Below, piece after piece: positions 50,339-64,000 of a DNA stretch of 64,000 nt. The translations under genes were made by a program, and so were the position numbers. Numbering within the stretch: position 1 is the first letter of the stretch; every line of letters begins with the position of its first letter. This DNA is from an uncultured Actinomycetes bacterium (GTDB taxonomy: Bacteria > Actinomycetota > Thermoleophilia > Gaiellales > JAICJC01), in the NCBI GenBank assembly GCA_963809325.1, contig CAWEIZ010000002.1:609745-673744 (forward strand), given 5' to 3'. The notes under the pieces were generated by a model. That model saw only the letters and a list, made by a program, of their open reading frames with translations, made no database searches and was not told the DNA's origin.

Positions 50339-50383
50339 GCGGCCTTCGCCGCTGCGCGCCACCGCGACTTCGGGAGGATCACG

Positions 50384-50845
50384 ATGACACGGCAGAACCT
50401 CTTCTCCGGCGTATGGGACGGAGACGACCAGGCTGGAACACGGCGCCGGGTGTTCTGGCGGCCGGACGACGCTCGGATGGGGGCGACGCTGTACGAGCTC
50501 GCCCCCGGCACGCCGGAGGACCGCATGCACATGCACTACGGAGCCGAGGAGATGTTCTTCGTCCTGAGCGGCCGCCCCGTGCTCCGGGGCCGGCACGGCA
50601 AGGAGACGCTCTCCCCCGGCGACGTCGTCTTCTGCCCGGAGGGACGGGTCGGGCTGCACACGTTCAGCAATCCGACCGACGAGCCCGCTGAGCTCCTGGC
50701 GATCAGCGCCGGAAGCTTCCCCGACGTCGTCGCCTATCCCGAGGACGGATACGCGTGGGTGGCAACCCGCGATCCCGATCCCGAGCTCCTGGCGAAGGGA
50801 GGCGATCCCGGCATCATCGCCCGGTTCGAGATCCCGGTCGAGTAG
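50384..50845 (+). CDS. cupin domain protein
   Basis: MHMHYGAEEMFFVLSGRPVLRGRHGKETLSPGDVVFCPEGRVGLHTFSN. Confidence 0.7.
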   Translation: MTRQNLFSGVWDGDDQAGTRRRVFWRPDDARMGATLYELAPGTPEDRMHMHYGAEEMFFVLSGRPVLRGRHGKETLSPGDVVFCPEGRVGLHTFSNPTDEPAELLAISAGSFPDVVAYPEDGYAWVATRDPDPELLAKGGDPGIIARFEIPVE

Positions 50846-50967
50846 CCACCTCGGGCTTTCCACAGGCCGCGATCAGGCCCGGCCCCGATGCCTGCGCGGG
50901 GCGGGCGCGGCGATACTGAGGTCGGTGAGAGTCCTCTCACCTCGAGAGGTCACACTGAGAGCCAGAG

Positions 50968-51651: not shown

Positions 51652-53111
51652 GGGGCCGGCTCGCGATCCGGACCCGGCTCGCGATCGTGAGCGCGACGCT
51701 GGCGGTCGGCGTGCTCGCGGCGGGCCTCCTCACCGTCTACCTGATCGACCGCCGCCAGGTCGACCAGTCGCTTGCGGCCTCTGCGCGGCGAGCCGCCGCC
51801 GATCTGGCGGATTCGGCCCTGCGCGGGACGCCGCAGCCGGCTCCGACGGGCGACGGGACGGGCGACGGGACGGACGACGCCGCCAAGCAGCTGCGGCCTG
51901 AGTCCCCCGAGAAGCTCGTCACGGCCTATCTCCGCGCGCGGGGCGGCTCCGGCCAGCTTCTCGCCAGCGTGACGGCGAGCGGCCACAAACGTGCGAACAG
52001 CCATCGGGCCCGGCGGCTGTGTCAGCGGAATGACGTCGCTTCCGGAGACGCGAAGCGCGTGGAGATCCGCGGGCACGAGTACGTCGTGGCGGCGGTCGCC
52101 CGGGACGGCTCCCGGTTTCTCGCCGCCGTCCCGGCAGCTGACGCCGACGCGGGGGTCCGCACGCTGCTCGATGCCATGCTCGTGGTGTGCCTGGTGGGGC
52201 TCATCCCCGCCACCGGGGCGGCGTGGCTCGTGACCAGGCGTGCGCTCGCCCCGCTCTCACGGATCGCCCAGCGCGCGTCGCGCGTCACCGGCGGCGACCT
52301 CTCGGTGCGGATGGGCCCGGTCCCGTCGCGCGACGAGATCGCCGACGTCGCCGACGCGATCGACGCGATGCTCGACCGGCTCGAGGGCGCCTTCGTGGCC
52401 CAGCGGCGCTTCGTCCACGACGCCTCTCACGAGCTGCGGACGCCGCTCACGATCGCCCGCGGCCACCTCGAGACCGCACTCGCCGGCGGCCGCGACCCGG
52501 CCGGGCTCGAGGCGGCGGCGCAGGTCGCGATCTCGGAGCTCGACCGGATGGCCCGGCTGGTCGAGAGCCTGCTCCGGCTGGCGCGCACAGGCGCGGACGG
52601 CCCGCAGGCGCGCGACCTCGTCGACGTCGGCGAGCTCGCCGAGCGGGTCGTTGCGCGCTCGCGGGTGCTCGGCGACCGCGCCTGGAATGTCGCCGCCGTG
52701 GAGGGAGCCATGGTGGAGGGCGACTCCGACGCGCTCGATCAGGTGCTCCTGAACCTGATCTCGAACGCCGTGCGGCACACGGCCGCCGGCCAGGCCATCG
52801 ACGTGTCCGTCGAGGCGGGGCCCGACACCGTCACGGTGGAGGTGGCGGACTCGGGCGAGGGGATCGACCCCACCCTCCTGCCGACGCTCTTCGACCGGTT
52901 CACCAGGGCGGATGCCGCGCGCGGCCGCGACACCGGCGGCACCGGCCTCGGGCTTGCGATCTGCCGGGCGATCGTCGAGGCCCACGGCGGGACTATCTCG
53001 GCCGCAAGCGCCCCGGGACGCGGCGCGACGTTCACCGTCGAGCTGCCGCGGATGCCCGTGGCCGGCCGGGCCGCGGGCATGAGAACCGTCTCACCCCCGG
53101 CTCACGCCTAG
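51648..53111 (+). CDS. sensor histidine kinase (HAMP + HisKA + HATPase)
   Basis: FVHDASHELRTPLT (H-box), LISNAVRHT, DSGEGI, GGTGLGLAICRAIVEAHGG; GTGA overlap with the response regulator. Confidence 0.9.
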   Translation: MRGRLAIRTRLAIVSATLAVGVLAAGLLTVYLIDRRQVDQSLAASARRAAADLADSALRGTPQPAPTGDGTGDGTDDAAKQLRPESPEKLVTAYLRARGGSGQLLASVTASGHKRANSHRARRLCQRNDVASGDAKRVEIRGHEYVVAAVARDGSRFLAAVPAADADAGVRTLLDAMLVVCLVGLIPATGAAWLVTRRALAPLSRIAQRASRVTGGDLSVRMGPVPSRDEIADVADAIDAMLDRLEGAFVAQRRFVHDASHELRTPLTIARGHLETALAGGRDPAGLEAAAQVAISELDRMARLVESLLRLARTGADGPQARDLVDVGELAERVVARSRVLGDRAWNVAAVEGAMVEGDSDALDQVLLNLISNAVRHTAAGQAIDVSVEAGPDTVTVEVADSGEGIDPTLLPTLFDRFTRADAARGRDTGGTGLGLAICRAIVEAHGGTISAASAPGRGATFTVELPRMPVAGRAAGMRTVSPPAHA

Positions 53112-53183
53112 CTCACTCCCGCTTCCTACGGTGGGAGACGACGCCGCACGACCGCGGCGCCCCCGACCGTAGGAGGATCGTTT

Positions 53184-53552
53184 GTGACCGTCCACCCGTC
53201 AGTTGCCTTCGCGGCCTTCGCCGCCGGGCTTGTCGTCGGCGGCGGCGCCTATGCAGCGAGCCACGACCTGGGGCTCGGCGACGGCCTGGCCGCCTCCGCC
53301 GACGCTCGGGCGCGGCTCGGTCAGGACATGCCGGTCGGCCGCCACGGCCGCCGCGTGCGCCTCCTGGCATGGCACGCCCCGCGCGTGCCCCACCTGAAGC
53401 CGCCGCCCCCGCGCGCGCCTGTCTTCCAGGTCACGTCGGCACCGGCGGTCTCGTCCGCGCCGGTGACGACACCGGTCACCAGCACGAGCCCGGCTCCGCC
53501 GGTGACCCGAACGAGCCCCACGGGCGGAGACGATGGAGGAGAGGATGACTAG
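53184..53552 (+). CDS. hypothetical secreted/membrane Pro/Thr/Ser-rich protein
   Basis: GGAGGA RBS before GTG; N-terminal hydrophobic segment VAFAAFAAGLVVGGGAYAA. Confidence 0.45.
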   Translation: MTVHPSVAFAAFAAGLVVGGGAYAASHDLGLGDGLAASADARARLGQDMPVGRHGRRVRLLAWHAPRVPHLKPPPPRAPVFQVTSAPAVSSAPVTTPVTSTSPAPPVTRTSPTGGDDGGEDD

Positions 53553-53922
53553 CACCGGACTTCGGATCTATACGACCGTCATCGCACTCATTTGCGGTGG
53601 CGCTGTGGCCTGGTCGATCCATCAGGCGTCCCTGGCCTCGTCGTGGCAGGCCGACGCTCGCTCGTGGCACACGGTCGCCCAGCGCACCGTCGCCCACGAC
53701 CGCGTGACGACGAGGCAGATGCACCACCTGGTCGTCCGGTACAACACGCTCGTCGTCCGCACCCGGCGCTCCGAGCAGAAGCTGCTCGCAAGCATGCGGC
53801 GGGCGCAGACGGCCGGCACTGCGCTGCCGTCGGCGTCCTCGTTCGCGAGCGTGACAGCTCCGGCGTCGTCCTCGGCCCCGGTCGCTACGGCCTCCGCCCC
53901 TCCGACCACGCACACGAGCTGA
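53533..53922 (+). CDS. hypothetical membrane-anchored protein
   Basis: N-terminal TM (IYTTVIALICGGAVAWSI) and a Ser/Ala/Thr-rich tail. The start is 53533 or 53545. Confidence 0.45.
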   Translation: MEERMTSTGLRIYTTVIALICGGAVAWSIHQASLASSWQADARSWHTVAQRTVAHDRVTTRQMHHLVVRYNTLVVRTRRSEQKLLASMRRAQTAGTALPSASSFASVTAPASSSAPVATASAPPTTHTS

Positions 53923-54824
53923 TGCAGACGGCCGCCAATATCGCGACGACTGCCGCCTGGGAGTGGCCGGCCACCGGCACCACCTGGCGCATCCATCACA
54001 CGGGCGGCGTCGACTCCGGCCTCGCCGCGACGATCGCGCAGGCGGTCGAGCGCGACGAGGCCCGCTGGTCGCGCTTCCGGCCCGAGAGCGAGGTCGCGCG
54101 TGTGAACGCGTCGGCGGGCCGGCCGGTTCCCGTCTCGTCCGCGACGCTCGACGTGGTCGAGGCGTGCGTCTACTGGATCCGGTCGACGGGCGGCGTCTTC
54201 CAGCCGCTCGTGGGCGGTGCGCTGGTCGCCTGGGGCTACCGCCGCAGCCTGGCCGACCGCAAGGCCTACGCCGAGTCGAGCCCGGACCCGCGCCGGCTGG
54301 AGGGCCGCCCCCAGGTCGATCGTGTCCGGCGGACGGTGCAGATTCCGGCCGGGACGAGGCTCGACCTCGGAGGGATCGCAAAGAGCTGGATGGCGTGCCG
54401 GGCCGCCGCACTCGTACGCGGCCGGTGTGACGACCCCTCGATCCTCGTCGACGCGGGCGGCGATCTCGTCGCGGCGCGCGGCCGGCACCTGGTGGCGGTC
54501 GAGGACCCTCGCGATCACGACGCCCCGCCGATCGCGCGGGTGTGGGTCGGCGAGGGACAGGGGATCGCCACGTCCGGCTTCGGCCGGCGCAGGTGGCAGA
54601 ACGGCGACGGCCGCCCCGCCCACCACCTGATCGATCCCGAGACCGGTGCGCCCGGACCGAGGACGCACGCCACCGTGGTCTCGGACGATCCGGTGGCCGC
54701 GGACGTCCTGGCGAAGCTCCTCACGCTCCGGCCGGGGCGGATCGCCGCGCTGGAGGAGGCCGCCATGGTCCTGAGCGACGGCGCCCTCCGGACGACCGCC
54801 GCCTGGACGGAGGTGGCGGAGTGA
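53922..54824 (+). CDS. FAD:protein FMN transferase (ApbE family)
   Basis: ...WSRFRPESEVARVN...LDLGGIAKSWM...ATSGFGRRRW...HHLIDPETGAP; TGATG overlap. Confidence 0.8.
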   Translation: MQTAANIATTAAWEWPATGTTWRIHHTGGVDSGLAATIAQAVERDEARWSRFRPESEVARVNASAGRPVPVSSATLDVVEACVYWIRSTGGVFQPLVGGALVAWGYRRSLADRKAYAESSPDPRRLEGRPQVDRVRRTVQIPAGTRLDLGGIAKSWMACRAAALVRGRCDDPSILVDAGGDLVAARGRHLVAVEDPRDHDAPPIARVWVGEGQGIATSGFGRRRWQNGDGRPAHHLIDPETGAPGPRTHATVVSDDPVAADVLAKLLTLRPGRIAALEEAAMVLSDGALRTTAAWTEVAE

Positions 54825-55399
54825 TCCTCTGGGACGTCGCGCGGGCGAGCGCATTCGTGGCCTTCGCCTGCTACACGCTGGTCGTCGCCTGGGGCATTGC
54901 GCTGAGCGCGCGCGTCTGGCGCCCGCCGGCTCCCCATATGGCCTATCACCGGTTCCTGGCCTCGCTCGGGCTGGTCGCGGTCGGGATCCACATCGGCGCG
55001 CTGATGCTCGACCGCTACGCCCGCGTGACGGTTCGGTCGCTCGTCGGGCTCGACCCGCGGCCGGGCGTCGTCGTCGGTGCCGCCGCGCTCTGGCTCGTGC
55101 TCGCGCTGCCGCTGTCGTTCAAGCTGAAGCAGGCGCGGTGGATGAGCCAGCGGGCGTGGCGCTCGCTGCACTACTTCGGCTACTCGGTCTGGGCGCTCTC
55201 GCTGGTGCACGGCATCGCGGCCGGGACCGACTCGCGATCGGTCTTCGCGCTTGGAATCTACGGCGCGTCGGCCGCCATCGTCGGCGGAGCGGCGTGGTAC
55301 CGGTGGCTCGAGCGCCCGGCACCGGCCCCCGGGCGCGCGCCGGCGCGCGACCGGCTGCCCGCCCGGGCGGCCCTCGAGATCGAGGGGAGCGAGCCGTGA
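54821..55399 (+). CDS. ferric reductase-like transmembrane domain protein
   Basis: Multi-TM protein with conserved His residues (YHRFLASLGLVAVGIHIGA..., SLHYFGYSVWALSLVHGI); GTGA overlap. Confidence 0.65.
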   Translation: MILWDVARASAFVAFACYTLVVAWGIALSARVWRPPAPHMAYHRFLASLGLVAVGIHIGALMLDRYARVTVRSLVGLDPRPGVVVGAAALWLVLALPLSFKLKQARWMSQRAWRSLHYFGYSVWALSLVHGIAAGTDSRSVFALGIYGASAAIVGGAAWYRWLERPAPAPGRAPARDRLPARAALEIEGSEP

Positions 55400-56514
55400 G
55401 CGCGGCCCGCTCGGTGACGGTGGTCGGAAACGGCGTCGCCGGCTACGCGTGCGCGCGCCGCCTGGCCGAGTCCGGCGTCGCGGTGACGCTGATCGGCCCC
55501 GGCCTGCCCTGCGATCGCCCCCCGCTCTCGAAGCGCGCGCTCGTGCGCCGGGCGGCGCCGTATCTGGCGACGGCCGACGGCCTCGCCGCGGCCGGAATCC
55601 GCCATCTCGACGGTTGGGCCGTCGAGCTCGACCTTCCGCGCCGGCGGCTCGGCGTGCAGTGCACGGCGCGGGGTGAGATCCACGAGCATGCCTTCGAGGA
55701 GCTCGTGTGGGCGACCGGCCTGCGCCTGACGCGTCCCCCGATCCCCGGAATCGGGGTGGCCCACCAGAACGCCGACCCGGCGGGGCTCGAGGAGCTTCTT
55801 CCCCGCCTCGAGCGGCCGGGTCGGCGGGTGGCGGTCATCGGAGCCGGGCTCATCGGCACCGAGACCGCCGCCACGTTGTCGGCGGCCCATCGCGTCACGC
55901 TGGTCGAACGGGGCGATCTGCCGTTGAGCCGGCTTCACAGCGCCGTCGGAGCCGAGGCCAAGCGGGTGCTTGCCGCGCTCGGCGTCGCGTTCGCCGGGGG
56001 CTGCAGCCTCGAGCGCATCGTTCCCATCCCCGGCGGCTCGCAGCTCATCCAGACGTCGACCCACGGGCGGATCGCGGCCGACGTCGTGATCGTCGCGGCC
56101 GGGGTCACCTCGACGCTGCCGCCTGCGCTCGGCGCCGGGCCCACCGTCGATACCGACGAGCGGCTCGCGGTCGAGGGTCTCGACGGCGTCTGGGCGTGCG
56201 GCGACACCGCCGCCTTCCCGCACCCGCGGTTCGGCCGCATCGCGATCCCGCATTGGGACAATGCCCGCGCCGGCGGCGACCACGTCGCGCGCGCGATCCT
56301 GGGGTCGCGCGCGCCGTTCGAGCGGGACCCGTACTGGTTCTCGGACATCGGCCCGCTGCGTGTGCAGCAGGTCGGGTTCGAGCCCGCCGTGTGCGAATGG
56401 TCGGTGCGCGACGGGCTTCACGTCGGTTGCGCGGACGACGGCCGGGCCGCGTGCGTCCTGCTTCTGAACTCCCCCCAACGATTGAACGATGCCCGCCGCC
56501 TGCTGGCGGCCTGA
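55396..56514 (+). CDS. NAD(P)/FAD-dependent oxidoreductase (ferredoxin reductase-like)
   Basis: VTVVGNGVAGYACARRL...VAVIGAGLIGTETAATL...VWACGDTAAF; GTGA overlap. Confidence 0.8.
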   Translation: MSAARSVTVVGNGVAGYACARRLAESGVAVTLIGPGLPCDRPPLSKRALVRRAAPYLATADGLAAAGIRHLDGWAVELDLPRRRLGVQCTARGEIHEHAFEELVWATGLRLTRPPIPGIGVAHQNADPAGLEELLPRLERPGRRVAVIGAGLIGTETAATLSAAHRVTLVERGDLPLSRLHSAVGAEAKRVLAALGVAFAGGCSLERIVPIPGGSQLIQTSTHGRIAADVVIVAAGVTSTLPPALGAGPTVDTDERLAVEGLDGVWACGDTAAFPHPRFGRIAIPHWDNARAGGDHVARAILGSRAPFERDPYWFSDIGPLRVQQVGFEPAVCEWSVRDGLHVGCADDGRAACVLLLNSPQRLNDARRLLAA

Positions 56515-56538
56515 CCAACCCCGAGAGGAGACGACCCG

Positions 56539-56733
56539 ATGGACACCCAGCTCATCATCGACCCGGACACGTGCGTCGGATACGGGGAGTGCGTCGCCGA
56601 GGACGCGTCCGCCGTCGAGCTCGACGAGAACGGCTGCGCGCGGGCTCTCGTGCCGCTGCTTGCCCGCGACCGGGCGGAGCGGCTCTGCTCCGCGTGCCCG
56701 GTCGGCGCCATCACGCTCAGGTCTGCGGCCTAG
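56539..56733 (+). CDS. small ferredoxin
   Basis: MDTQLIIDPDTCVGYGECVAEDASAVELDENGCA...CSACPVGAITL. Confidence 0.8.
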   Translation: MDTQLIIDPDTCVGYGECVAEDASAVELDENGCARALVPLLARDRAERLCSACPVGAITLRSAA

Positions 56734-56739
56734 AGTAGA

Positions 56740-56999
56740 GATGAGTGACCGATAACTCCCGCGCGCGTGGACGCCCGCCGCTTCGGAACGGCGAACCGGG
56801 GAGAGGCTGTGGCTGCGAACCGTCGCATCGCGGCGTCCTCGGTCGCCCCGATATTTCAATCAATATCGCCCGCCGGCGTCTGCGTCATCGCAGACGCCTT
56901 CCGAACCCTGTCAAGCCGTGCCGGCTTGACAGGTCCTGCGTCCTTGCGCTACTCGGTTCTCGCCACCCAGAACATCACGGGAGTTATCGATCACTCATC
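56740..56999 (-). ncRNA. candidate structured RNA, copy 1 (260 nt; 22-bp closing stem, conserved core, two extra hairpin insertions)
   Basis: Closing stem 56740-56761 / 56978-56999. Its only mismatch is C.A on the plus strand, which is G.U on the minus strand. Core blocks are near-identical to 63590-63794. No conserved ORF. Confidence 0.4.
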
Positions 57000-57289
57000 C
57001 CCCGCCGCCAATCGAACACGGCGGTGAGCGCCTCGGGCGCCTTGACCGCGCCGGCCAGCTCGATCACCTGGAGCTGCAGGTCGTGGTCGTCCGCCAGGCG
57101 GCGCACGACGGCATCCGGATCCAGGCCCTCGAACAGGAAGGCGACGTGCCTGGGGCCGATGAACACCGTGTGCCGCTCGAGCTCGGTCGCCGCGATGTCG
57201 TAGGGCGGCTCCCCGGAGAACGTCTCGAGGAGCTCCTCGCGGCGGGCGGGGTCGATCTGGGCGACGTAGAGGATCTCTGTTCCGGCCAT
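56984..57289 (-). CDS. hypothetical small protein, last gene of the USP-ATPase unit
   Basis: MAGTEILYVAQIDPARREELLETFSGEPPYD...HTVFIGPRHVAFLFEG...; the stop codon lies inside the closing stem of the element above. Confidence 0.6.
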   Translation of the reverse strand: MAGTEILYVAQIDPARREELLETFSGEPPYDIAATELERHTVFIGPRHVAFLFEGLDPDAVVRRLADDHDLQLQVIELAGAVKAPEALTAVFDWRRGMSDR

Positions 57290-57333
57290 CCGTGGTCGAG
57301 GATAGCGCGACGGGGCCGTCGTGCGGAAGGTGG

Positions 57334-59193
57334 TCACGAGCGACCGCCACCCAGGGCCCGGAGCGCGTTCAGGATCACGGCGACGTCGATGACCTCCTGG
57401 AACACCGCGCCCGACACCGGCGGCAGGTATCCGGCGGCGGCGAACGCCATGCCCACGATGCTGAGCCCCAGGCCGGCGATGACGCTCTGGCGGGCGATCC
57501 GGATCGATCGCCGGCCGATGCTCACCGCGCGGGCGACGCGATCGATGCGGTCGACCGCGATCACCGCGTCCGCGGCCTCCGACGCGATGGTGGCGCCGGC
57601 CGCGCCGAGCGCGATGCCGACGTCGGCGAGCGCCAGGGCCGGCGCGTCGTTGATCCCGTCGCCGACCATCACGATCGGGCTCAGGTCATCGCGAGCGGCG
57701 AGCGAGCGGACGAGCTCCAGCTTGTCCTGAGGCGACTGCCTGGCGTAGATCCGGTCGACGCCCGCCGCGCGGCCGATGGCCTCTGCCGTGGTCTCGACGT
57801 CTCCCGTGGCGAGGGCCACGTACCGGACACCCGATCTGCGCAGGTCGGCCACGAGCCCCCCGGCATCCTCGCGCAACCGGTCCGACATCACGATCACGGC
57901 GACGACGCGACCGTCGGCCGCCACGGTGACGCGCGCCTCGCCGTCCGCGGCCGCGCCCTCGTCGGCCAGAGCCTCGGGCTGGGCCGCGTGCGCCGCCACG
58001 AACGCTGCGCTTCCGACAGCGACCGGCCGTCCGTCGACGTCGCCCGCGATGCCCTGTCCCGCGTCCTCCCGCACACCGCTCGGCATGCTGAGCCGGAGTC
58101 CGCGATCCGACGCCTCCCGCACGAGCGCTGCGGCCATGGCGTGCGAGGAGAACTGGTCGAGCGACGCCGCAATCCGCAGCGCCTCGCTCGCAGGGATGCC
58201 GTCCGCGGTCAGGATCCGGTCGACCTGAGCCGTTCCCAGCGTCAGCGTCCCGGTCTTGTCGAAGAGCACGGTGCGCGCGCGGCCCAGCGCCTCGATGACG
58301 GCACCGCCCTTCACGATCACGCCCTCCCGCGCCGCCCGGGACACGCCCGAGATGAACGCGATCGGCGCGGCCAGGATGAGCGGGCACGGCGTCGCAACCA
58401 CCAGCACCGCGACGGCCCGTCGTGGGCTCCCGCTGACCGCCCACGCCGAGCCGGCCACCACGATCGTCACCGGCAGGAACACGGCTGCGTAGCGGTCGGC
58501 CATCCGGACGAAGGGCGCCTGACTGCCTTCGGCGTCGCGCACGAGCCGCACCAGGGCGGCGTACGTGCTGCCCGACGCCGGCGTCGTGGCCTCGAGCTCG
58601 AAGGCCTCGCCGGCATTCGTGCAGCCGCCGCGCGCCGTCGCACCGGTGTGCAGCGTGCGCGGCAACGGCTCGCCGGTCAGCGCCGAGTCGTCGACGATGG
58701 CCTCGGCGCTCTGGACGATGCCGTCTGTGGGGATCACCTCGCCGGCCCGGACGAGCAGACGGTCTCCGACCCGCACCTCGTCGACCCCGATCCGCTCGAC
58801 AGCATCGCCCGTGATCCGGTTCGCCCACTTGGGCGCTCGGTCGACCAGGAGCGTCAGCTCCCGGCGGGCCCGCCCCTGCGCGAAGAGCTCGAGTGCGTTC
58901 CCCCCGGCGAGCATCAGCGCGATCACGGCCCCCGCCAGGTACTCGCCGATCGCCAGCGCGCCCGCCATGGCCAGGAGCGCGATCGCATCCACGCCGACGT
59001 CACCGTGAAGCAGCGACCTCCCGACCGAGATCGAAAGCGGGATCAAGAGGGCGAGCGTCGACGCCGCCCAGATGGTGCTCGCGGCGGCGTGCGCTCCCGC
59101 GAGATCGAGCACCCCTCCTGCAACCAGGCTGACGGTGGCCGCGCCCGGCAGGAGGAGGCGTGTCTCCATGGCCGTGCGCGGCAGACCGGGCAT
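57334..59193 (-). CDS. heavy-metal-type (P1B) P-type ATPase, with no N-terminal metal-binding domain and TM motif PCP
   Basis: DKTGTLT, VMVGDGINDAPALA, ATPCPLILAAP, TGEPLP. The start is 59193 or 59169. Confidence 0.85.
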   Translation of the reverse strand: MPGLPRTAMETRLLLPGAATVSLVAGGVLDLAGAHAAASTIWAASTLALLIPLSISVGRSLLHGDVGVDAIALLAMAGALAIGEYLAGAVIALMLAGGNALELFAQGRARRELTLLVDRAPKWANRITGDAVERIGVDEVRVGDRLLVRAGEVIPTDGIVQSAEAIVDDSALTGEPLPRTLHTGATARGGCTNAGEAFELEATTPASGSTYAALVRLVRDAEGSQAPFVRMADRYAAVFLPVTIVVAGSAWAVSGSPRRAVAVLVVATPCPLILAAPIAFISGVSRAAREGVIVKGGAVIEALGRARTVLFDKTGTLTLGTAQVDRILTADGIPASEALRIAASLDQFSSHAMAAALVREASDRGLRLSMPSGVREDAGQGIAGDVDGRPVAVGSAAFVAAHAAQPEALADEGAAADGEARVTVAADGRVVAVIVMSDRLREDAGGLVADLRRSGVRYVALATGDVETTAEAIGRAAGVDRIYARQSPQDKLELVRSLAARDDLSPIVMVGDGINDAPALALADVGIALGAAGATIASEAADAVIAVDRIDRVARAVSIGRRSIRIARQSVIAGLGLSIVGMAFAAAGYLPPVSGAVFQEVIDVAVILNALRALGGGRS

Positions 59194-59205
59194 CGGGCGT
59201 TGCGG

Positions 59206-59643
59206 TCAGGCTTCGATCGCCGACGACTCTGCGGCCTCGACCCCGTGTCCCGTGTAGCCACCGGGGACGACGAGCACCGGGCACGTGGCGATCGGCAGCA
59301 GGCGCTGCGTTGTGCTTCCCAGCACTGCGCCGGCGAACGGCCCGCGGCCGCGGCTGGCGATCACGATCAGCTCGGCCTCGGCTTCCCGAGCGACTTCGGC
59401 GATCATCTGCGCCTCGTCGCCGAACAGCGAGTCGCGGACGATGATGGAGGTCTCGATGCCGGACCGGGAGAGGTGCTCAACGTGAGCGTGGAGCGTGTCC
59501 TCGATCGCGGTTTCGAGCGCGTGCGTGCGGGCGTGCGCAACCACGATCCGGGCGCCTTCCCGGCGCGCGTACGCCTCGGCGACGGGGATCGCCCGATTGG
59601 AGCCTTCCGATCCATCGAGTGCGAGAACGATTGTGGTGTACAT
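59206..59643 (-). CDS. universal stress protein
   Basis: MYTTIVLALDGSEGS...LIVIASRGRGPFAGAVLGSTTQRLLPIATCPVLVV. Confidence 0.9.
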   Translation of the reverse strand: MYTTIVLALDGSEGSNRAIPVAEAYARREGARIVVAHARTHALETAIEDTLHAHVEHLSRSGIETSIIVRDSLFGDEAQMIAEVAREAEAELIVIASRGRGPFAGAVLGSTTQRLLPIATCPVLVVPGGYTGHGVEAAESSAIEA

Positions 59644-59696
59644 GGCAACACCTCCGTGTCGTTCTCACCATGGTTGCGTGTGGACCTCCGGGCGGC

Positions 59697-59714
59697 ATCG
59701 GGGCGGGTACCGAA
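59697..59714. promoter_or_regulatory. stress-island dyad, site C (minus-strand reading TTCGGTACCCGCCCCGAT), between the divergent USP and oxidoreductase genes
   Basis: Same spacing as sites A and B; followed by GCCGC. Confidence 0.45.
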
Positions 59715-59818
59715 CTCGTGTGCGGGGTTCCCGTATGGCAGGTCATGGCGGCCACCGATGGCCGTCCGGCCGGTCGGCGCTAGCCTTGAGCCGTCAGAGA
59801 GTCCAGCGGAGGTGCGTG

Positions 59819-60943
59819 ATGAGCGGCCTGCGGCGGCTTCGCGTCGTGATTGCCGGAGGAGGGGTGGCGGCGCTTGAGACGGCGCTCGCCCTGCGCACGC
59901 TGGCGCCCGAGCTGACGGAGATCACGCTCGTCGCGCCGACCGACCGGTTCAGGTTCCGGGCAGCGGCGGTCGGCGAGCCGTTCGGCCGCGCCGAGGTGCA
60001 CCGGTTCGACCTGGGGTCGATCGCGCGCGACATCGGCGTCACGCTGCGGCATGGTGCGCTCACGGCCGTCGATGCCGAGAACAGAACGGCGACCCTGGGC
60101 GGCGACGAGAGGATCGAGTACGACGCCGTCGTCATCGCGTGCGGGGCCCAGGCGAGCCCGGTGGTGCCCGGAGCGCTCGTCTTCGGCGGCCCGGAGGACG
60201 TCGAGGGTCTGCGCAGGCTCGTCGCCGAGATCGACGCCGGCGAGGTCCACGCGGTGGCGTTCGCGATCCCGGCGAGCATCGGCTGGACGCTGCCCGCATA
60301 CGAGCTCGCGCTCCTGACGGCGCACCGGGCCGACCCCCGGGTGTCGATCTCGATCGTGACCCCTGAGGAGGAACCGCTGGCCGCCTTCGGCGGCGAGGCC
60401 AGCGCGGAGGTGCGCCGGCTGCTCGAGGCGAACGGCGTTGCGCTCCACCTGCGCCAGACACCGGCCGAGTTCACGGCCGGCGTCCTGCGCACGCAGCCCG
60501 GCGACGAGATCCAGGTCGAGCGCGTGGTCGCCCTGCCGCGGCTCGTGGGCGTCCCGATCGAGGGCGTCCCCGCCACGCGAGATGGGCTGCTGCGCACCGA
60601 CGAATTCGGACGCGTCGACAACCTGACCGACGTCTACGCCGCGGGCGACATCACCGCGTTTCCGGTCAAGCAGGGTGGCATCGCCGCCGAGCAGGCCGAC
60701 GCCGTCGCCGAGATGCTGGCATCAGAGGCGGGGATCGACATCACGCCCACACCGTTTCAGCCCGTCCTGCGGGGCGTGCTCATGACGGGCGAGGAGGACC
60801 GCTTCCTGCGCGCCGACCTGGGGGGCGGGCGCGGGGACACGGCCGAGGCGGAGGCACGGGCGCTGTGGTGGCCGCCGGCGAAGGTCTCGGGCCGCTACCT
60901 GGCGCCGTATCTGGCCGGCATCGAGGCCGCTACCACGACTTGA
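59819..60943 (+). CDS. FAD-dependent pyridine nucleotide-disulfide oxidoreductase (SQR/NDH-2-like), paralog 2
   Basis: GCGGAGG RBS; LRVVIAGGGVAALETALAL...YDAVVIACG...VYAAGDITAFPVKQGGIAAEQAD. Confidence 0.8.
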   Translation: MSGLRRLRVVIAGGGVAALETALALRTLAPELTEITLVAPTDRFRFRAAAVGEPFGRAEVHRFDLGSIARDIGVTLRHGALTAVDAENRTATLGGDERIEYDAVVIACGAQASPVVPGALVFGGPEDVEGLRRLVAEIDAGEVHAVAFAIPASIGWTLPAYELALLTAHRADPRVSISIVTPEEEPLAAFGGEASAEVRRLLEANGVALHLRQTPAEFTAGVLRTQPGDEIQVERVVALPRLVGVPIEGVPATRDGLLRTDEFGRVDNLTDVYAAGDITAFPVKQGGIAAEQADAVAEMLASEAGIDITPTPFQPVLRGVLMTGEEDRFLRADLGGGRGDTAEAEARALWWPPAKVSGRYLAPYLAGIEAATTT

Positions 60944-63572
60944 GCCGTTCCTGGGGCACGGCGTGCGCCACCCGGACGCGTGCGTCCACGGCGACGCAGT
61001 CGTCCGCGAGCGCGATCACGGGGTTCAGGTCGAGCTCGGCCACGTGTGGGAAGTCCTCCGCGAGCGCGGCGAGCCGGACGACGAGGTCGACGAGCGCGCC
61101 CGTGTCGGCCGGCGGGCGACCGCGGAAGCCGCCCACCAGCTCGCCCGCCTTCCCCGACGTGACGAGCTCGCCGGCGTCGATGTCGGTGAGCGGGAGCGTT
61201 GCGAACGCCGTGCCCCCGATCAGCTCGGCCATCGTCCCGCCGGGGCCGAAGGCCACCACGGGGCCGAACACCGGGTCCTGCACGACGCCGGCCAGGAGCT
61301 CGATCCCGCCCGAGACCATCGGCTGGAGCACGGCCGGATACCCGATCCGGTCGAGGGCGGCGTCGAGCGCGGCCAGGTCGCGGACTCCGAGGATCACGCC
61401 GCCGCTGTCGATCTTGTGGACGCCCGCCTCGCCGAGCTTCACGACGAGCGGGTAGCCCAGCGCATGTGCGGCCTCGAGCGCCTCGGGCCGGTTCGTCACC
61501 GTGCGCTGGGCGACGCACGGCACGCCGTAGGCGGTGAGGAGGCGGCGGGCGGCGTCGGCGCCAAGCCAGGCGTCGGGTGAGGCCTCGAGCGCTGATTCGA
61601 TCACCGCGTGGGCCGCGGCCCGGTCGACGACGGGCTCGTGGACGCGCCCCTGCGGCCGGCGCAGCCACTCGGCCCGCTCGGCGGCCCGCGCGAGCGCGCC
61701 GGCGGCGGCCTCCGGGTAGCGGTAGCACGGCACCGATCCGCTGTGAGTCGCGCTGCCGGGGGTGACCGCCAGCACGGGCTTCCGCGGTTGCTCGCGGTCG
61801 CACGCAGCGGCGATGGCGCGAACGACGTCCTCGGGCATTGCGAGCGCCGTGGGCGCCGCGAGCACGACGAGCGAGTCGACGTCGGCGTCGGCGAGGAGCA
61901 GCGGCACGACGGCCGCGTAGGTCTCGGCCGTCGCCGAGGCGATCATGTCGACCGGGTTGGTGACGGTCGCCTCGTCCGGCAGGAGCGCGGCGAGGTGCTC
62001 GCGCGTGTGCTCGTTGAGCGGCGCAAGCTCGAAGCCGAGCTCGGCGCAGGCGTCGGCGCACAGGATCGCCAGCCCGCCTGCGTTCGACAGGATCGCGACC
62101 CGCCTGCCGTGGGGCAGCGGCTGGGTCGCGACAAGCTGGAGGACGTCGCACAGCTCCTGCAGGGTGTGCGCGCGGATCACGCCGGCCTGTTCGAACAGCG
62201 CCTCCACCGCCCGGTCGGAACCGGCCAGCGCGGCAGTGTGTGACATCGCGGCCCGCTCGCCCATCGTCGTCGACCCGCTCTTCAGCGCCAGGACCGGCTT
62301 CTGCCTGGCGACCCGGTTGGCGATGCGCGCGAAGCGGCGGGGGTTCCCGACCGACTCCAGGTAGAGCGCGATCGCGGCAGTGTTGTCGTCGTCCTCCCAG
62401 TACTCGAGCAGGTCGTTGGACGACACGTCCGCCTTGTTGCCGATCGATACGAACGCGGACATGCCGAGGCCGCGCTGGGAGGCCTCGTCGATCACCGCGA
62501 GGCCGACGGCGCCGCTCTGCGACGAGATGGCCACGTTCCCCGGCTCGAACTGGCGGCGCGAGAACGTCGCGTTCATCTTCGTCGCCGCGGCGAAGACGCC
62601 CAGGCAGTTCGGCCCGACCATGCGCGCACCGTGCGAGCGGACGAGTGACAGCAGGTCGGCCTCGGCCTTCGCGCCGGCCGGCCCGGTCTCGGCGAACCCC
62701 GCCGAGATCACGCACACCGCCTTCGTGCCGGCGGCGAGCGCCTCGGCGACCGCTCCCTGGACGGCGCCCGACGGCACCGCGATGACCGCCAGGTCGATGG
62801 GCACCGGCAGCTCCGCGACCGAGGCGTGCGCGGGGTGCCCGGCAACGGGCTCGCCGGAGCGGTTGACCGGGAAGACCGATCCGGTGTAGCCGGCCTCGAC
62901 GATGTTCCGGAAGACGGCGCCTCCGATCGACCCCTCGCGCGCGGACGCGCCGACCACGGCGACCGAGTCCGGCTCGAGCACGGGCCGCAGCGACGGCCCG
63001 ACCGCGGTGTGGTCGCGAAAGTCCACTGCCTCGAAGTAGCGCTCGTCGAACCGGATCGGGAAGTCGACCCGGATCTCCTCGCCGTCGTCGCTGCGGGTGA
63101 CCTCGAACCCCGAGTCCTCGAAGACCCGCAGCATCGCCCGGTTCTCGGGCAGCACCTCGGCGACGAAGCGCTCGATCCCGATCTTGCCCGCCTCGTCCGC
63201 GATCTGCTCGAGCAGCCGGGTGGCGATCCCGTCGGCCTGGCGGTCGTCGGCCACGACGAACGAGACCTCCGCCAGCCGCGGGTCGCGGAGGCGGACGAAG
63301 CTCGCCAGGCCGATCACCCGGGCGCTCTCGTCGGCGCCGACGGCGGTGGCGAGGAGCACGCCCTCGCTCGTCCAGTCCGGGTCGAGGAAGCTCGCGACCA
63401 TCGCGTCGTCGACGCGCCTGGCGGCGTGGAACCGCAGACGCATGCTCGTCGGCGAGAGCTCCGTCAGGAACCGCCGCACGGCGTCGGCGTCGTCGTCGGA
63501 AGGCGGGCGCAGGCGGAGCGTGCGCCCGCCTCGCAGGATGACGTCGTGAACGCGTTGCCCGGTGGCGCTCAT
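60930..63572 (-). CDS. bifunctional GNAT acetyltransferase / ADP-forming acyl-CoA synthetase-like protein (Pat-like, GNAT N-terminal)
   Basis: N-terminal GNAT domain (VADDRQADGIATRLLEQIADEAGKIGIERFVAEVLPENRAMLRVFEDSGF). It is followed by CoA-binding/succinyl-CoA-ligase-like and ATP-grasp regions (VAVVGAS...GPNCLG...SQSGA...VVKL...). GGAAGG RBS. Confidence 0.85.
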   Translation of the reverse strand: MSATGQRVHDVILRGGRTLRLRPPSDDDADAVRRFLTELSPTSMRLRFHAARRVDDAMVASFLDPDWTSEGVLLATAVGADESARVIGLASFVRLRDPRLAEVSFVVADDRQADGIATRLLEQIADEAGKIGIERFVAEVLPENRAMLRVFEDSGFEVTRSDDGEEIRVDFPIRFDERYFEAVDFRDHTAVGPSLRPVLEPDSVAVVGASAREGSIGGAVFRNIVEAGYTGSVFPVNRSGEPVAGHPAHASVAELPVPIDLAVIAVPSGAVQGAVAEALAAGTKAVCVISAGFAETGPAGAKAEADLLSLVRSHGARMVGPNCLGVFAAATKMNATFSRRQFEPGNVAISSQSGAVGLAVIDEASQRGLGMSAFVSIGNKADVSSNDLLEYWEDDDNTAAIALYLESVGNPRRFARIANRVARQKPVLALKSGSTTMGERAAMSHTAALAGSDRAVEALFEQAGVIRAHTLQELCDVLQLVATQPLPHGRRVAILSNAGGLAILCADACAELGFELAPLNEHTREHLAALLPDEATVTNPVDMIASATAETYAAVVPLLLADADVDSLVVLAAPTALAMPEDVVRAIAAACDREQPRKPVLAVTPGSATHSGSVPCYRYPEAAAGALARAAERAEWLRRPQGRVHEPVVDRAAAHAVIESALEASPDAWLGADAARRLLTAYGVPCVAQRTVTNRPEALEAAHALGYPLVVKLGEAGVHKIDSGGVILGVRDLAALDAALDRIGYPAVLQPMVSGGIELLAGVVQDPVFGPVVAFGPGGTMAELIGGTAFATLPLTDIDAGELVTSGKAGELVGGFRGRPPADTGALVDLVVRLAALAEDFPHVAELDLNPVIALADDCVAVDARVRVAHAVPQERLKSW

Positions 63573-63589
63573 CAAGACCTTCCGTAATC

Positions 63590-63794
63590 TAGATGGTTGA
63601 TTCCCAATTCGCGCGCGCCTGGACGTCCGATTTGTGGCGTGGACCGCCAAGCGTGGCGGGGCTGCGGCTGCGAACCGTCGCATCGCGGCGTCCTCGGTCG
63701 CGCCGATATTCACCAATATCGGCGCTCCCTGCGTCCTTGCGCTGCTCGGTTCTCGCCGCCCAGGACATCACGTGAATTGGGAATCAACCATCTA
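63590..63794 (-). ncRNA. candidate structured RNA, copy 2 (205 nt; perfect 21-bp closing stem), between the USP stop codon and the Pat-like gene RBS
   Basis: Closing stem 63590-63610 / 63774-63794. Core blocks match copy 1. On the minus strand its 5' end is the USP stop UAG and its 3' end lies 17 nt before ATG 63572. Confidence 0.4.
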
Positions 63795-64000
63795 GGCCGG
63801 ACCCGGCCGAATCACCAGGACCGAGCATCCTGCGCGGTGTGCGGCGCGCTCGCTCACGCTCCCGAGCGCATGGACCCCTCTCAACCCGCGGCTCCCGAGC
63901 ACGAGGAGATCCGCGTCCACATCCGAGAACGCGTCGACGGGATCGCGCGTGTCGTCGGTCAGGAGGAAGCCGCCCGAGTCGATGACGATCGACCGCACCG
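63792..64000 (-). CDS. universal stress protein, C-terminal part (5' end outside window)
   Basis: ...DADLLVLGSRGLRGVHALGSVSERAAHRAGCSVLVIRP*. Confidence 0.75.
   Translation of the reverse strand, partial: VRSIVIDSGGFLLTDDTRDPVDAFSDVDADLLVLGSRGLRGVHALGSVSERAAHRAGCSVLVIRPGPA

Follow-up and report, generated by a model that had tools for sequence, protein, structure and literature searches.

Likely members of a MITE-like family of modular hairpin elements at gene ends in Thermoleophilia

Miniature repeats described in other bacteria

The Correia elements of Neisseria (CREE/NEMIS) resemble the family described here in being non-coding, about 100-200 bp long, bounded by terminal inverted repeats and present in many copies per genome. 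A TA is duplicated at their flanks, and we know of no cognate transposase. Their sites are filled or empty depending on the strain, and co-transcription with neighboring genes yields long hairpins, which are cut by RNase III (PMC10969869). Correia elements share no sequence similarity with our family, and they have promoters and an IHF site and often lie upstream of genes, whereas our elements lie at stop codons and 3' ends. Unlike Correia, our family also carries stops in multiple frames of its arms, and a GC-rich, near-invariant bipartite core that recurs across shells with different termini. In Streptococcus pneumoniae, BOX (boxA-boxB(n)-boxC), RUP, and SPRITE are modular, vary in the number of internal units, have stable predicted RNA structures, and insert into one another (PMC10969869). 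An optional two-hairpin module, tandem core units, and a nested insertion at one locus (L075) are BOX-like features of our family, but the phylum and the sequences are different; and where BOX conserves its terminal modules, our family has an invariant interior and variable arms.

Closer in phylogeny, the actinobacterial MIRU (40-100 bp) lie inside operons, are transcribed polycistronically, and overlap adjacent stop and start codons with their ends, and filled as well as empty sites, with short direct repeats, are known (PMC3184786). The operon-internal forms of our family are MIRU-like, with a GTGA stop/start duplicated at S17-L14 instead of TA or CTAG; MIRU, however, are prone to tandem repetition, contain small ORFs, and are weakly palindromic, in contrast to our near-perfect hairpins of 90-260 nt without a conserved ORF. 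REP/REPIN sequences, mobilized by RAYT, are similarly intergenic, hairpin-forming, and multi-copy, often at 3' ends or within operons. In REPINs, however, conservation lies in the arms (the REP sequences) and variation in the loop, the reverse of our family, which in this respect is not of the REPIN type; unlike REP/REPIN, copy 2 of our element also has a short target duplication. IS630/Tc1-mariner insertion sequences and their MITEs share with copy 2 a duplicated TA target, although, unlike them, no transposase gene with the ends of our elements was found in ~1.5 Mb of fetched loci. Duplication of TA on insertion is described for the IS630 family (PMC2170065); among the references of that paper, Tenzen and Ohtsubo (1991) is cited for preferential transposition of IS630 to TA within CTAG.

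Two structured copies and their empty sites

The window, the whole 64,000-nucleotide stretch of DNA analyzed here, holds two elements with identical core blocks: copy 1 (56740-56999, 260 nt) and copy 2 (63590-63794), both on the + strand, taken as the orientation of the family core. A closing inverted repeat of ~20-24 bp bounds each; because MFE boundary calls over-extend in 71% GC DNA, we used ungapped arm scoring instead. A 36-nt block is the same at 56811-56846 and 63666-63701, and a 44-nt 3' block (56936-56979 versus 63729-63772) differs by three R transitions; each block occurs exactly twice in the window, with 0 occurrences expected. Pairwise alignment leaves a single large gap in copy 2, opposite the extra sequence of copy 1. 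Both copies fold with exceptional stability (copy 1, -150/-154 kcal/mol, z -10.2/-9.0; copy 2, -121/-125 kcal/mol, z -8.3/-11.3), and no shuffle of either folded equally well. A covariance model run with filters off returned only these two copies from the window, copy 2 scoring 98 bits, and no third.

In copy 1 the left terminal arm, GATGAGTGACCGATAACTCCCG (56740-56761), has stops in all three frames (TGA, TGA, TAA) and pairs over 22 bp with one mismatch with the right arm (56978-56999); the closing repeat of copy 2 is 22-24 bp long and unlike it in sequence. After the left arm comes a variable side hairpin, CGCCG-CTTCGGAA-CGGCG (56776-56793), a hypervariable region in an alignment of 40 copies, which in copy 2 reads CCGCCA-AGCG-TGGCGG. 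The 5' conserved block (56811-56846) comprises the 5' strand of P2 and a 23-nt core, CGCATCGCGGCGTCCTCGGTCGC (56824-56846), and is followed by the apical AT-rich hairpin P3, CGATATT-TCAATC-AATATCG (56849-56868), all 11 pairs of which covary family-wide. Between P3 and the 3' block, copy 1 carries an accessory module (56875-56933) of two perfectly paired hairpins, HP1, GGCGTCTGCG-TCAT-CGCAGACGCC (56875-56898), and HP2, CCTGTCAAGCCG-TGC-CGGCTTGACAGG (56907-56933), both present in the MFE folds of either strand. The 3' conserved block (56934-56979) begins with gTCCTGCG, not CTCCCTGCG, and continues with the 3' strand of P2 and then CCCAGAACATCACG. All that a sequence-only reading had reported of the shared core blocks, the two extra perfect hairpins of copy 1, and the differing variable hairpins is therefore accurate.

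The accepted criterion for MITE mobility is the comparison of empty with filled sites (PMC3184786). Relatives (loci L106-L115) have the same gene order as the window, and both element sites are empty in them; collinear BLAST matches at 83-92% nucleotide identity are interrupted exactly at both elements (for copy 1, at 56734-57002), and we found no family copies in these collinear relatives. At the empty site of copy 2, 15 nt separate the stop of a USP gene from the ATG of Pat, and at that of copy 1 a 101-aa gene and a ferredoxin gene overlap by 17 nt. Aligning filled with empty sites places copy 2 with its flanking direct repeats at 63589-63795: the empty site has one CTAG, at the USP stop codon, and the filled site has two (63589-63592 and 63792-63795), around the element proper (63593-63791), in the pattern C-TA-[element]-TA-G. 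The corresponding alignment for copy 1 revealed no duplication at its right flank (CTCATC|CCCC). TA adjoins 29 of the 40 left ends and 20 of the 40 right ends of aligned copies, against a background of 0.9%. We conclude that both window copies are insertions, missing from collinear relatives.

The insertions meet their neighbors at stop codons. The ferredoxin gene (56539-56733, + strand; TAG at 56731-56733) ends 6 nt ahead of copy 1 and converges with the 101-aa conserved hypothetical gene (56984-57289, - strand), which stops at TAA 56984-56986 within the right arm; its last codons, read from the minus strand of that arm as GMSDR and the stop, are therefore element-derived, so that copy 1 supplies the C-terminal tail. 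At copy 2 the USP ORF upstream stops in the arm at TAG 63792-63794, and the Pat-like gene downstream (GNAT plus ADP-forming acyl-CoA synthetase, 60930-63572, - strand) retains its RBS and ATG. It had been noted that minus-strand coding sequences end inside or at an arm in both copies, as they do; the further proposal, that the closing stem senses translation, gains nothing from this, because these ends follow from insertion at stop codons and from the stops that the arms hold in several frames, and are no evidence for a dedicated translation-sensing stem.

Family distribution, modularity, and placement

The core recurs in more than 200 fetched loci, which come from genomes of Gaiellales, Solirubrobacterales, and Thermoleophilaceae and from contigs of soil metagenomes that have no classification. 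The 23-mer core occurs in 105 genome stretches from Thermoleophilia MAGs, with 4-11 exact hits in single MAGs, and the independent 3' block in more than 120 contigs from soil. Pairs of copies from one genome share 98-99% identity but have unrelated flanks, and family members adjoin diverse, unrelated genes with no stable gene-family link at orthologous positions. The subfamily of the window is ~205 nt long (205-260 nt for the window elements), with conserved outer terminal inverted repeats (C)TAGATG[G/A]TTGAT, element ends of the GATG[G/A]TTGATTCC type, and an outer 13-15 nt of the arms conserved across the 40 aligned copies; other shells have different termini (TAGTGG.., TAGTGC.., TAGAGAC..) around the same near-invariant interior. 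No ORF is conserved: copy 1 has ATG AGT GAC CGA TAA where copy 2 has a 60-aa ORF, and indels are not multiples of three. A coding hypothesis was rejected, as the 60-aa ORFs of copy 2 are conserved neither in copy 1 nor family-wide, and a minus-strand SD and ATG in the core, which share the reading frame of Pat only in copy 2, were judged a coincidence.

Modularity extends beyond the window. The two-hairpin module occupies three different positions among family copies, and was never found outside elements in ~0.96 Mb; in copy 1 it has a position seen in no other copy, where it disrupts the first bases of a 3' block that hardly varies elsewhere. Insertion of hairpins at fixed points of a conserved scaffold, as had been suggested, does not describe this pattern. 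We read the extra hairpin pair of copy 1 as an accessory module of the family, which may have arisen as a tandem duplicate of the core unit and then diverged, and not as a scaffold-specific expansion. A search for autonomous partners, by unpaired arms or TA-flanked inverted repeats 0.7-2.6 kb apart, returned neither an autonomous element nor a transposase gene bounded by such ends in the ~1.5 Mb of fetched loci, but only a copy with a nested insertion of a foreign TIR element (L075), two copies side by side (L041), and a solo arm remnant (L201). Nested insertion, solo arm remnants, and the tandem arrays of core units that occur in the family are typical of such mobile repeats. Copy 2 had no BLASTN match in PLSDB (plasmids) or INPHARED (phages), and neither core block matched viral contigs. 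Rfam 15 gave no gathering-threshold hits in the whole window or 18 loci, and at E<=10 only noise for copy 2 (mir-702, C4, sR28).

Placement is tied to gene ends. Stops in at least two frames occur in 64/80 arms and in all three frames in 19/80, compared with 1.4% and 0.04% of random 24-mers, and flanking genes mostly end within ~15 nt of an element end. Elements of the window's subfamily are randomly oriented and enriched between convergent genes (7 sense, 9 antisense, 11 convergent, 2 divergent), whereas short forms have a strong sense bias (22 versus 3). Where a subfamily is biased, transcription follows the strand read as + in this window, and the window's own subfamily is unbiased; the minus-strand polarity assumed earlier has no support. 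Using GC skew as a proxy for the replication strand, we detected no orientation signal. Short forms persist at orthologous sites in ribosomal-protein operons, where the arms evolve fast with compensation and the core is conserved, and carry an SD in the 3' arm, paired in the closing stem beside the upstream stop codon; presence/absence polymorphism is found even within these operons.

Structure is maintained throughout. In two independently ascertained sets, compensatory changes keep pairing in the inner arms, P2, and P3: paired cells make up 84-86%, as opposed to 34-46% with the structure slid, and covariation scores of 0.205 and 0.267 compare with 0.094 and 0.098 in shuffles, none of 500 of which scored as high. 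The description of a real, non-coding, highly structured, and modular element was thus correct, with its stems maintained by compensatory changes. Evidence for the folding strand from G.U versus A.C mismatches is mixed. For the short forms, P2 favors the + strand (82 versus 34); the window's subfamily is neutral, with 11 G.U versus 21 A.C in the arms (a hand tally) and so no G.U excess on either strand, and 18 G.U versus 22 A.C in P2 and P3, leaving aside a conserved tandem C.A at the base of P3, which would read G.U on the minus strand.

Origin of the elements and the near-invariant core

We consider it probable that copies 1 and 2 are members of a multi-copy, non-coding, hairpin-forming family of MITE-like modular mobile elements specific to Thermoleophilia. 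The family is previously unrecorded, and its members land on stop codons. It combines terminal inverted repeats, small size with neither transposase nor conserved ORF, many copies per genome, and filled versus empty sites, as MITEs do. A DDE transposase acting in trans and targeting TA or CTAG (IS630/Tc1-like or IS5/IS427-like) may insert the element by cut-and-paste or copying; it is the target signature that would assign the elements to IS630/Tc1, and an IS5/IS427-type duplication of 4-bp CTAG would fit equally well. Insertions probably land at gene ends because a genome of 71% GC offers few TA sites, which are concentrated in stop codons, and would be harmless at 3' ends because the stop-rich arms end any reading frame within ~12-16 nt. 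Copy 1 would have entered where the 101-aa gene and the ferredoxin gene converge and overlap, giving the 101-aa gene a new tail in place of its own; copy 2 would have landed on the USP stop codon, setting USP and Pat 207 nt apart. If co-transcribed, the element would fold as a rod with more than 100 paired bases, probably a 3'-end barrier or RNase III-type processing site that uncouples USP from Pat.

Several observations argue against this MITE-like origin. The ~1.5 Mb of fetched loci yielded no autonomous partner, and copy 1 lacks a duplication on its right side. Different termini around the same interior are not explained by a transposase that reads terminal repeats, and compensated changes in the inner arms, P2, and P3 imply that a single-stranded hairpin is selected for or generated, not that a transposon decays neutrally. 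The sense bias and orthologous retention of short forms in ribosomal-protein operons, moreover, hint at an RNA-level role or filter. What the MITE reading leaves unaccounted for is the near-invariant and potentially new bipartite core, found in several shells, including SD-carrying sense copies within ribosomal-protein operons. Its 5' half, CGCATCGCnGCGTCCTCrGTCGC, and 3' half, TCCCTGCGTCCTTGCGCTGCT, both contain GCGTCCT and clamp a freely covarying hairpin between them. Resemblances noticed by eye to SRP domain IV, Xer/dif sites, and integron attC were dropped: there was no Rfam SRP hit, P3 is not conserved in sequence, and R/L box motifs are absent. We tentatively suggest, as something that could be true though the odds favor otherwise, that the core is a functional nucleic-acid module, either the cis-recognition site of an undescribed structure-specific mobilization system that sets element ends at the base of any long hairpin beside a stop codon, or a protein-binding RNA element domesticated by Thermoleophilia, with stop codon, hairpin, and SD forming one unit between the cistrons of ribosomal-protein and other operons.

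The earlier proposal, a conserved structured RNA (a 3' UTR element, leader, or stand-alone sRNA) that regulates USP, ATPase, and Pat and in which the closing stem responds to translation at the upstream stop codon, draws on the very stable folds, the strong covariation of arms, P2, and P3 in both sets, the near-invariant core, and the sense-oriented short forms with their paired SD. We nevertheless regard it as improbable: both copies are missing where collinear relatives keep the same genes, family neighbors are unrelated, the randomly oriented window subfamily has no fixed strand relative to transcription and no G.U excess in its arms, there is no Rfam match, and neither copy has a promoter or intrinsic terminator motif (a GC-rich hairpin with a U-tract). 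A tie to the USP/ATPase/small-protein unit fails on the first two of these points.

We give equally little credence to mobilization as single-stranded DNA recognized by structure, as in REP/REPIN-RAYT or IS200/IS605-PATE systems, in which an HUH/Y1-type enzyme would read the core and hairpin while the arms vary so long as they pair. An invariant interior between variable yet complementary arms in several shells, tandem unit arrays, and the lack of a DDE partner in the ~1.5 Mb fetched would suit such a system, and hairpin covariation is compatible with single-stranded DNA. The directly duplicated CTAG/TA at the filled site and the enrichment of TA at element ends speak against it, since to our knowledge REP- and IS200-type elements make no target duplication; so do the subfamily-wide conservation of the outer 13-15 nt of the arms, which resembles that of TIRs bound by a transposase, the lack of orientation bias relative to GC skew, and the fact that no RAYT or TnpA gene was noticed beside any copy in an incidental view of neighbors.

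Least plausible, and in our judgment very unlikely, is a host-domesticated intergenic module that became repetitive secondarily. Between convergent genes it would block transcription in both directions or stabilize mRNA 3' ends, and in operons it would act in intercistronic processing or translational coupling. Convergent placement, the embedded SD, retention in ribosomal-protein operons with fast, compensated arms and a conserved core, and the known cleavage of MITE transcripts by RNase III and RNase E and their capacity to act as terminators (PMC10969869) would fit, but neither copy has a U-tract terminator, polymorphism inside the same operons shows that the element is dispensable, and purifying selection on where insertions are tolerated explains the distribution equally well.

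The element beside the USP, ATPase, and Pat genes is not a dedicated regulatory RNA, and annotation should therefore mask it as a repeat. According to literature and Rfam searches, ours is apparently the first described miniature mobile-repeat family of Thermoleophilia, a largely uncultured, soil-abundant class. Targeting of TA and stop codons by elements with arms that end translation in every frame would explain how a GC-rich, gene-dense genome tolerates them. Because insertions rewrite C-termini, as in the 101-aa protein, and part coupled genes, as with USP and Pat or ribosomal-protein cistrons, they may be a source of strain-level expression differences, and the family may be useful as a marker for strain typing in metagenomes. 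The near-invariant core, present in several shells and kept in ribosomal-protein operons, is a candidate new protein- or enzyme-recognition motif; if it is indeed a functional module, these elements would be no ordinary MITE but a new class of structured element carried by repeats.

Two related units in the window and their empty sites

Two related non-coding hairpin units lie in the window (GC 71%), copy 1 at 56740-56999 and copy 2 at 63590-63794, and a covariance model built from 96 cores of their family found only these two. The sequence-only reading had said that they share core blocks, and this was borne out: blocks of 36 nt and 44 nt (the latter with three transitions) each occur exactly twice in the window, with no occurrence expected by chance. 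Pairwise alignment showed one large insertion, in copy 1, and the two extra perfect hairpins of that copy were located at 56875-56898 and 56907-56933; the side hairpins also differ as described, and the closing inverted repeat, 20-24 bp in each copy, differs in sequence. Folding energies of -150 to -154 kcal/mol for copy 1 and -121 to -125 kcal/mol for copy 2 are far lower than those of shuffled sequences on both strands (z -8 to -11). The neighbours named earlier were also recovered: copy 1 has a ferredoxin gene (plus strand) on one side and, on the other, minus-strand genes for a 101-aa protein, a P-type ATPase and a stress protein (USP), and copy 2 is flanked by a USP and by Pat, a GNAT/ADP-forming acyl-CoA synthetase (Pat-like) gene. 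On the minus strand at 63683, the reverse complement of the copy 2 core reads GAGGACGCCGCGATG, an SD sequence plus ATG in frame with Pat (mechanical ORF 60930..63716) that could add a 37-codon N-terminal extension; this is probably a coincidence.

Contigs with homologues of the 101-aa protein keep the gene order: GAF-kinase, response regulator, three USPs and Pat, with an oxidoreductase on the opposite strand, then USP, ATPase, the 101-aa gene and the convergent ferredoxin gene. In these relatives the 101-aa and ferredoxin genes share 17 nt, and 15 nt separate the USP stop from the Pat ATG. The BLAST alignment, collinear at 83-92% identity, is interrupted precisely over 56734-57002 and stops at 63580, immediately ahead of copy 2, and a covariance-model search of the collinear relatives found no family copy. 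After DWRR the C-terminus of the homologues varies, and in the window this tail, GMSDR*, is encoded by the arm of copy 1. At the copy 2 site the relatives have GGCC-TAG-TCTTCAGAGGTCTTGATG and the window has GGCC-TAG-[ATGGTTGATT...AATCAACCATC]-TAG-ATTACGGAAGGTCTTGATG, so that TA, TAG or CTAG is duplicated at the USP stop codon and the Pat RBS is intact. Copy 1 begins 6 nt after the ferredoxin TAG, with no repeat preserved on its right side. Comparison of these sequences shows that both window copies are insertions.

One relative of window 56500-64000 and beyond (L114:1-10500) encodes a GAF-GAF-HisKA_3 kinase, a GerE-type response regulator, three USPs, Pat, another USP and a P-type ATPase, and resembles a DosS/DosR-type stress or dormancy locus. 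Elsewhere in the window, a ~153-aa ORF (50384-50845) with its flanks (50339-50853) corresponds to ~39 nt in the collinear relatives L113-L115, and no inverted repeats were found at the flanks of this segment. A family member (L033:2300-3300) is also present downstream of the ferredoxin region in a MAG 72% identical to window 52131-56712. It follows an extra 68-aa ORF and has the opposite orientation to the window; both convergent genes end at its terminal TAGs, and it appears to have inserted independently close to the position of copy 1.

In the window's subfamily, TA directly flanks 29 of 40 left and 20 of 40 right ends (dinucleotide frequency 0.9%). Stop codons occupy at least two frames in 64 of 80 arms, against 1.4% of random 24-mers, and all three frames in 19 of 80, against 0.04%; both arms of copy 1 have stops in all three. 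Genes running into an element mostly stop no further than ~15 nt from its boundary, using the terminal TAG or the TGAs of GATGATTGAT. Orientation relative to co-directional genes, called by a GC3/open-frame heuristic, is random (7 vs 9), and 11 members lie between convergent genes and two between divergent ones. In another family member (L075:~130-815), a ~700-nt foreign element that has terminal inverted repeats of its own (GGGCTATCCcTTTGGCTCCAGCA) is nested in one arm, with the host arm's TTCGGAA repeated on both sides. At L201:3555-3585 a right arm (GCGCGGAATCAATCATCTA) stands alone next to coding-like sequence, with no core nearby, and is apparently a deletion remnant.

Family spread, core and shells

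An exact 23-mer of the core, CGCATCGCGGCGTCCTCGGTCGC, used as bait in a species-representative genome collection, matched 105 stretches, all but two chance matches being from Thermoleophilia or unresolved Actinomycetota MAGs; named carriers are Gaiellales, Gaiellaceae, Solirubrobacterales and Thermoleophilaceae, and single MAGs hold 4-11 exact matches. The 21-nt 3' block, outside this bait, was identical in 64 of 98 matches and had at most one mismatch in 84. When the 3' block itself was used as bait in soil metagenomes, at least 120 contigs matched; among the matches listed, 104 instances had a detectable 5' block, with variation concentrated at positions 9, 18 and 23 and all other positions at least 92% conserved. 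Because this bait, independent of the 23-mer, recovers a 5' block variable mainly at three positions, we conclude that the core is near-invariant; because only 19 of these 104 instances hold the exact 23-mer, the genome scan saw about a fifth of the family. The covariance model added a few further diverged copies in other loci. Intragenomic pairs are up to 98-99% identical with unrelated flanks. Rfam 15 held no matching family, the plasmid, phage and viral collections searched gave no match, and no description of the family was found in Rfam or a full-text literature search. Two Vicinamibacteria loci (L053:4314-4336 and L065:4925-4947) have the 23-mer inside a conserved gene end, lacking hairpin and 3' block, and were set aside as chance or unrelated.

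The common unit comprises the 5' strand of stem P2, CGCAUCGCnG, an 11 x 11 internal region, the apical hairpin P3, the 3' block and the P2 3' strand. CGCAUCGCnG pairs with UUGCGCUGC, supported by rare double changes; the internal region is conserved and non-covarying, with GCGUCCU on both strands; and every pair of P3 (22-27 nt) covaries. In two independently ascertained alignments, paired cells made up 84-86%, versus 34-46% with a slid structure, and covariation was 0.205 and 0.267, versus 0.094 and 0.098 in shuffles, none of 500 scoring as high. At the P3 base (columns 40-41 / 62-63 of family alignment A3) the core strand has a conserved tandem C.A/C.A mismatch (GCGCC-CATA...TATG-AACGC), which the opposite strand would show as a tandem G.U. 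The mismatch is present in most members of the window's subfamily, unlike both window copies, which pair perfectly there.

This core is found within differing shells. The window's subfamily (~205 nt) has arms of (C)TAGATG[G/A]TTGATTCC plus 6-9 variable, mutually compensating bases, with double changes at 17 pairs (40 copies, alignment A2). Other shells are ~165-nt forms (arms for example AGTGGTCGCTCC...GGAGaGACCACT), those found inside Gaiellaceae ribosomal-protein operons, minimal forms (90-130 nt) whose closing stems, each unique and 15-23 bp long, immediately follow a stop codon, and tandem arrays of the inner unit with period 66. Two arrays (L067:4335-4530 and L104:1894-2090), from two MAGs and located downstream of one and the same gene, hold three such units (core 5' block, hairpin and start of 3' block), with that gene's last codons taken up in the closing stem.

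The extra hairpins of copy 1 form an accessory module, seen only inside elements of the window's subfamily and constant in orientation; hairpin 1 has the apex CTGCGTSATCGCAG, hairpin 2 the stem GT(S)CAAGSC...GSCTTG(S)AC, and the lower stems of both covary. Their description as an insertion at fixed points of a scaffold was not supported, as the module occupies three positions: 5' of P2 (L054, L085), in the P2 3' strand (L007, L044, L054; hairpin 2 alone in L021, L061), and, in window copy 1 only, between P3 and the otherwise invariant 3' block, whose start it alters. To the covariance model the module resembles a second, degenerate unit of 5' block plus hairpin, scoring 29 bits. The true 3' block contributes most of that score, so an origin by tandem duplication and divergence, on the pattern of the period-66 arrays, is possible.

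Forms inside ribosomal-protein operons

In Gaiellaceae ribosomal-protein operons the core fills the S10-L3, L23-L2, S17-L14 or L14-L24 junction, always in sense, with different junctions filled or empty among loci L001, L015, L051, L073, L076, L089, L093 and L102. The upstream stop codon stands at the stem foot, and the 3' arm contains the SD of the downstream gene (GGAGG), which pairs with CCTCC of the 5' arm. The empty S17-L14 junction of L001 and L015 reads AAGTGATCCAG, with overlapping stop and start and a single GTGA; in L076 and L073, where it is filled, GTGA stands on both sides of the element. The L14-L24 junction has the reverse pattern. Where orthologous sites are filled, arm identity is only 50-70%, below that of the coding sequence alongside, yet the arms remain complementary, and the core is 78-96% identical. 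Short forms overall are sense in 22 cases versus 3, non-independent counts that include orthologous sites, and their P2 has 82 G.U versus 34 A.C on the sense strand. On a simple reading, a selection filter is at work: within essential operons, only insertions restoring stop, SD and start survive. An RNA-level role for these short forms is possible.

A probable modular mobile element and its alternatives

We adopt the reading that copy 1 belongs to a MITE-like, modular mobile element, on the basis of repetition, terminal inverted repeats, filled and empty sites and the short copy 2 duplication, together with TA-flanked ends, stop-capped arms and context statistics. Mobilisation would occur in trans, by a TA/CTAG-targeting DDE transposase. 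According to Tenzen and Ohtsubo in 1991, as cited in PMC2170065, IS630 reportedly prefers TA within CTAG. IS630-family elements duplicate TA on insertion (PMC2170065), and a 4-bp duplication of the IS5/IS427 type fits the target signature equally well. Against a plain MITE count the pervasive compensatory evolution, the differing termini around one invariant interior, the missing duplication at copy 1, and the failure to find a partner transposase in the fetched loci.

The data would also allow, as a secondary role, a domesticated terminator or processing module. The element may act on RNA as a barrier or processing site and may uncouple USP from Pat; the analogy is with Correia and ERIC elements, for which effects of RNase III and RNase E have been described (PMC10969869). 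Correia, BOX and MIRU elements resemble this family in how they work and have no sequence in common with it. A hairpin-recognising ssDNA mobilisation system would explain the invariant core with free arms, but the duplication falls outside its predictions, and no enzyme of that type was seen next to a copy. A dedicated regulatory RNA is contradicted by empty orthologous sites, diverse neighbours and random orientation.

One odd feature worth pursuing is the near-invariant bipartite core, common to different orders and shells and kept in ribosomal-protein operons.
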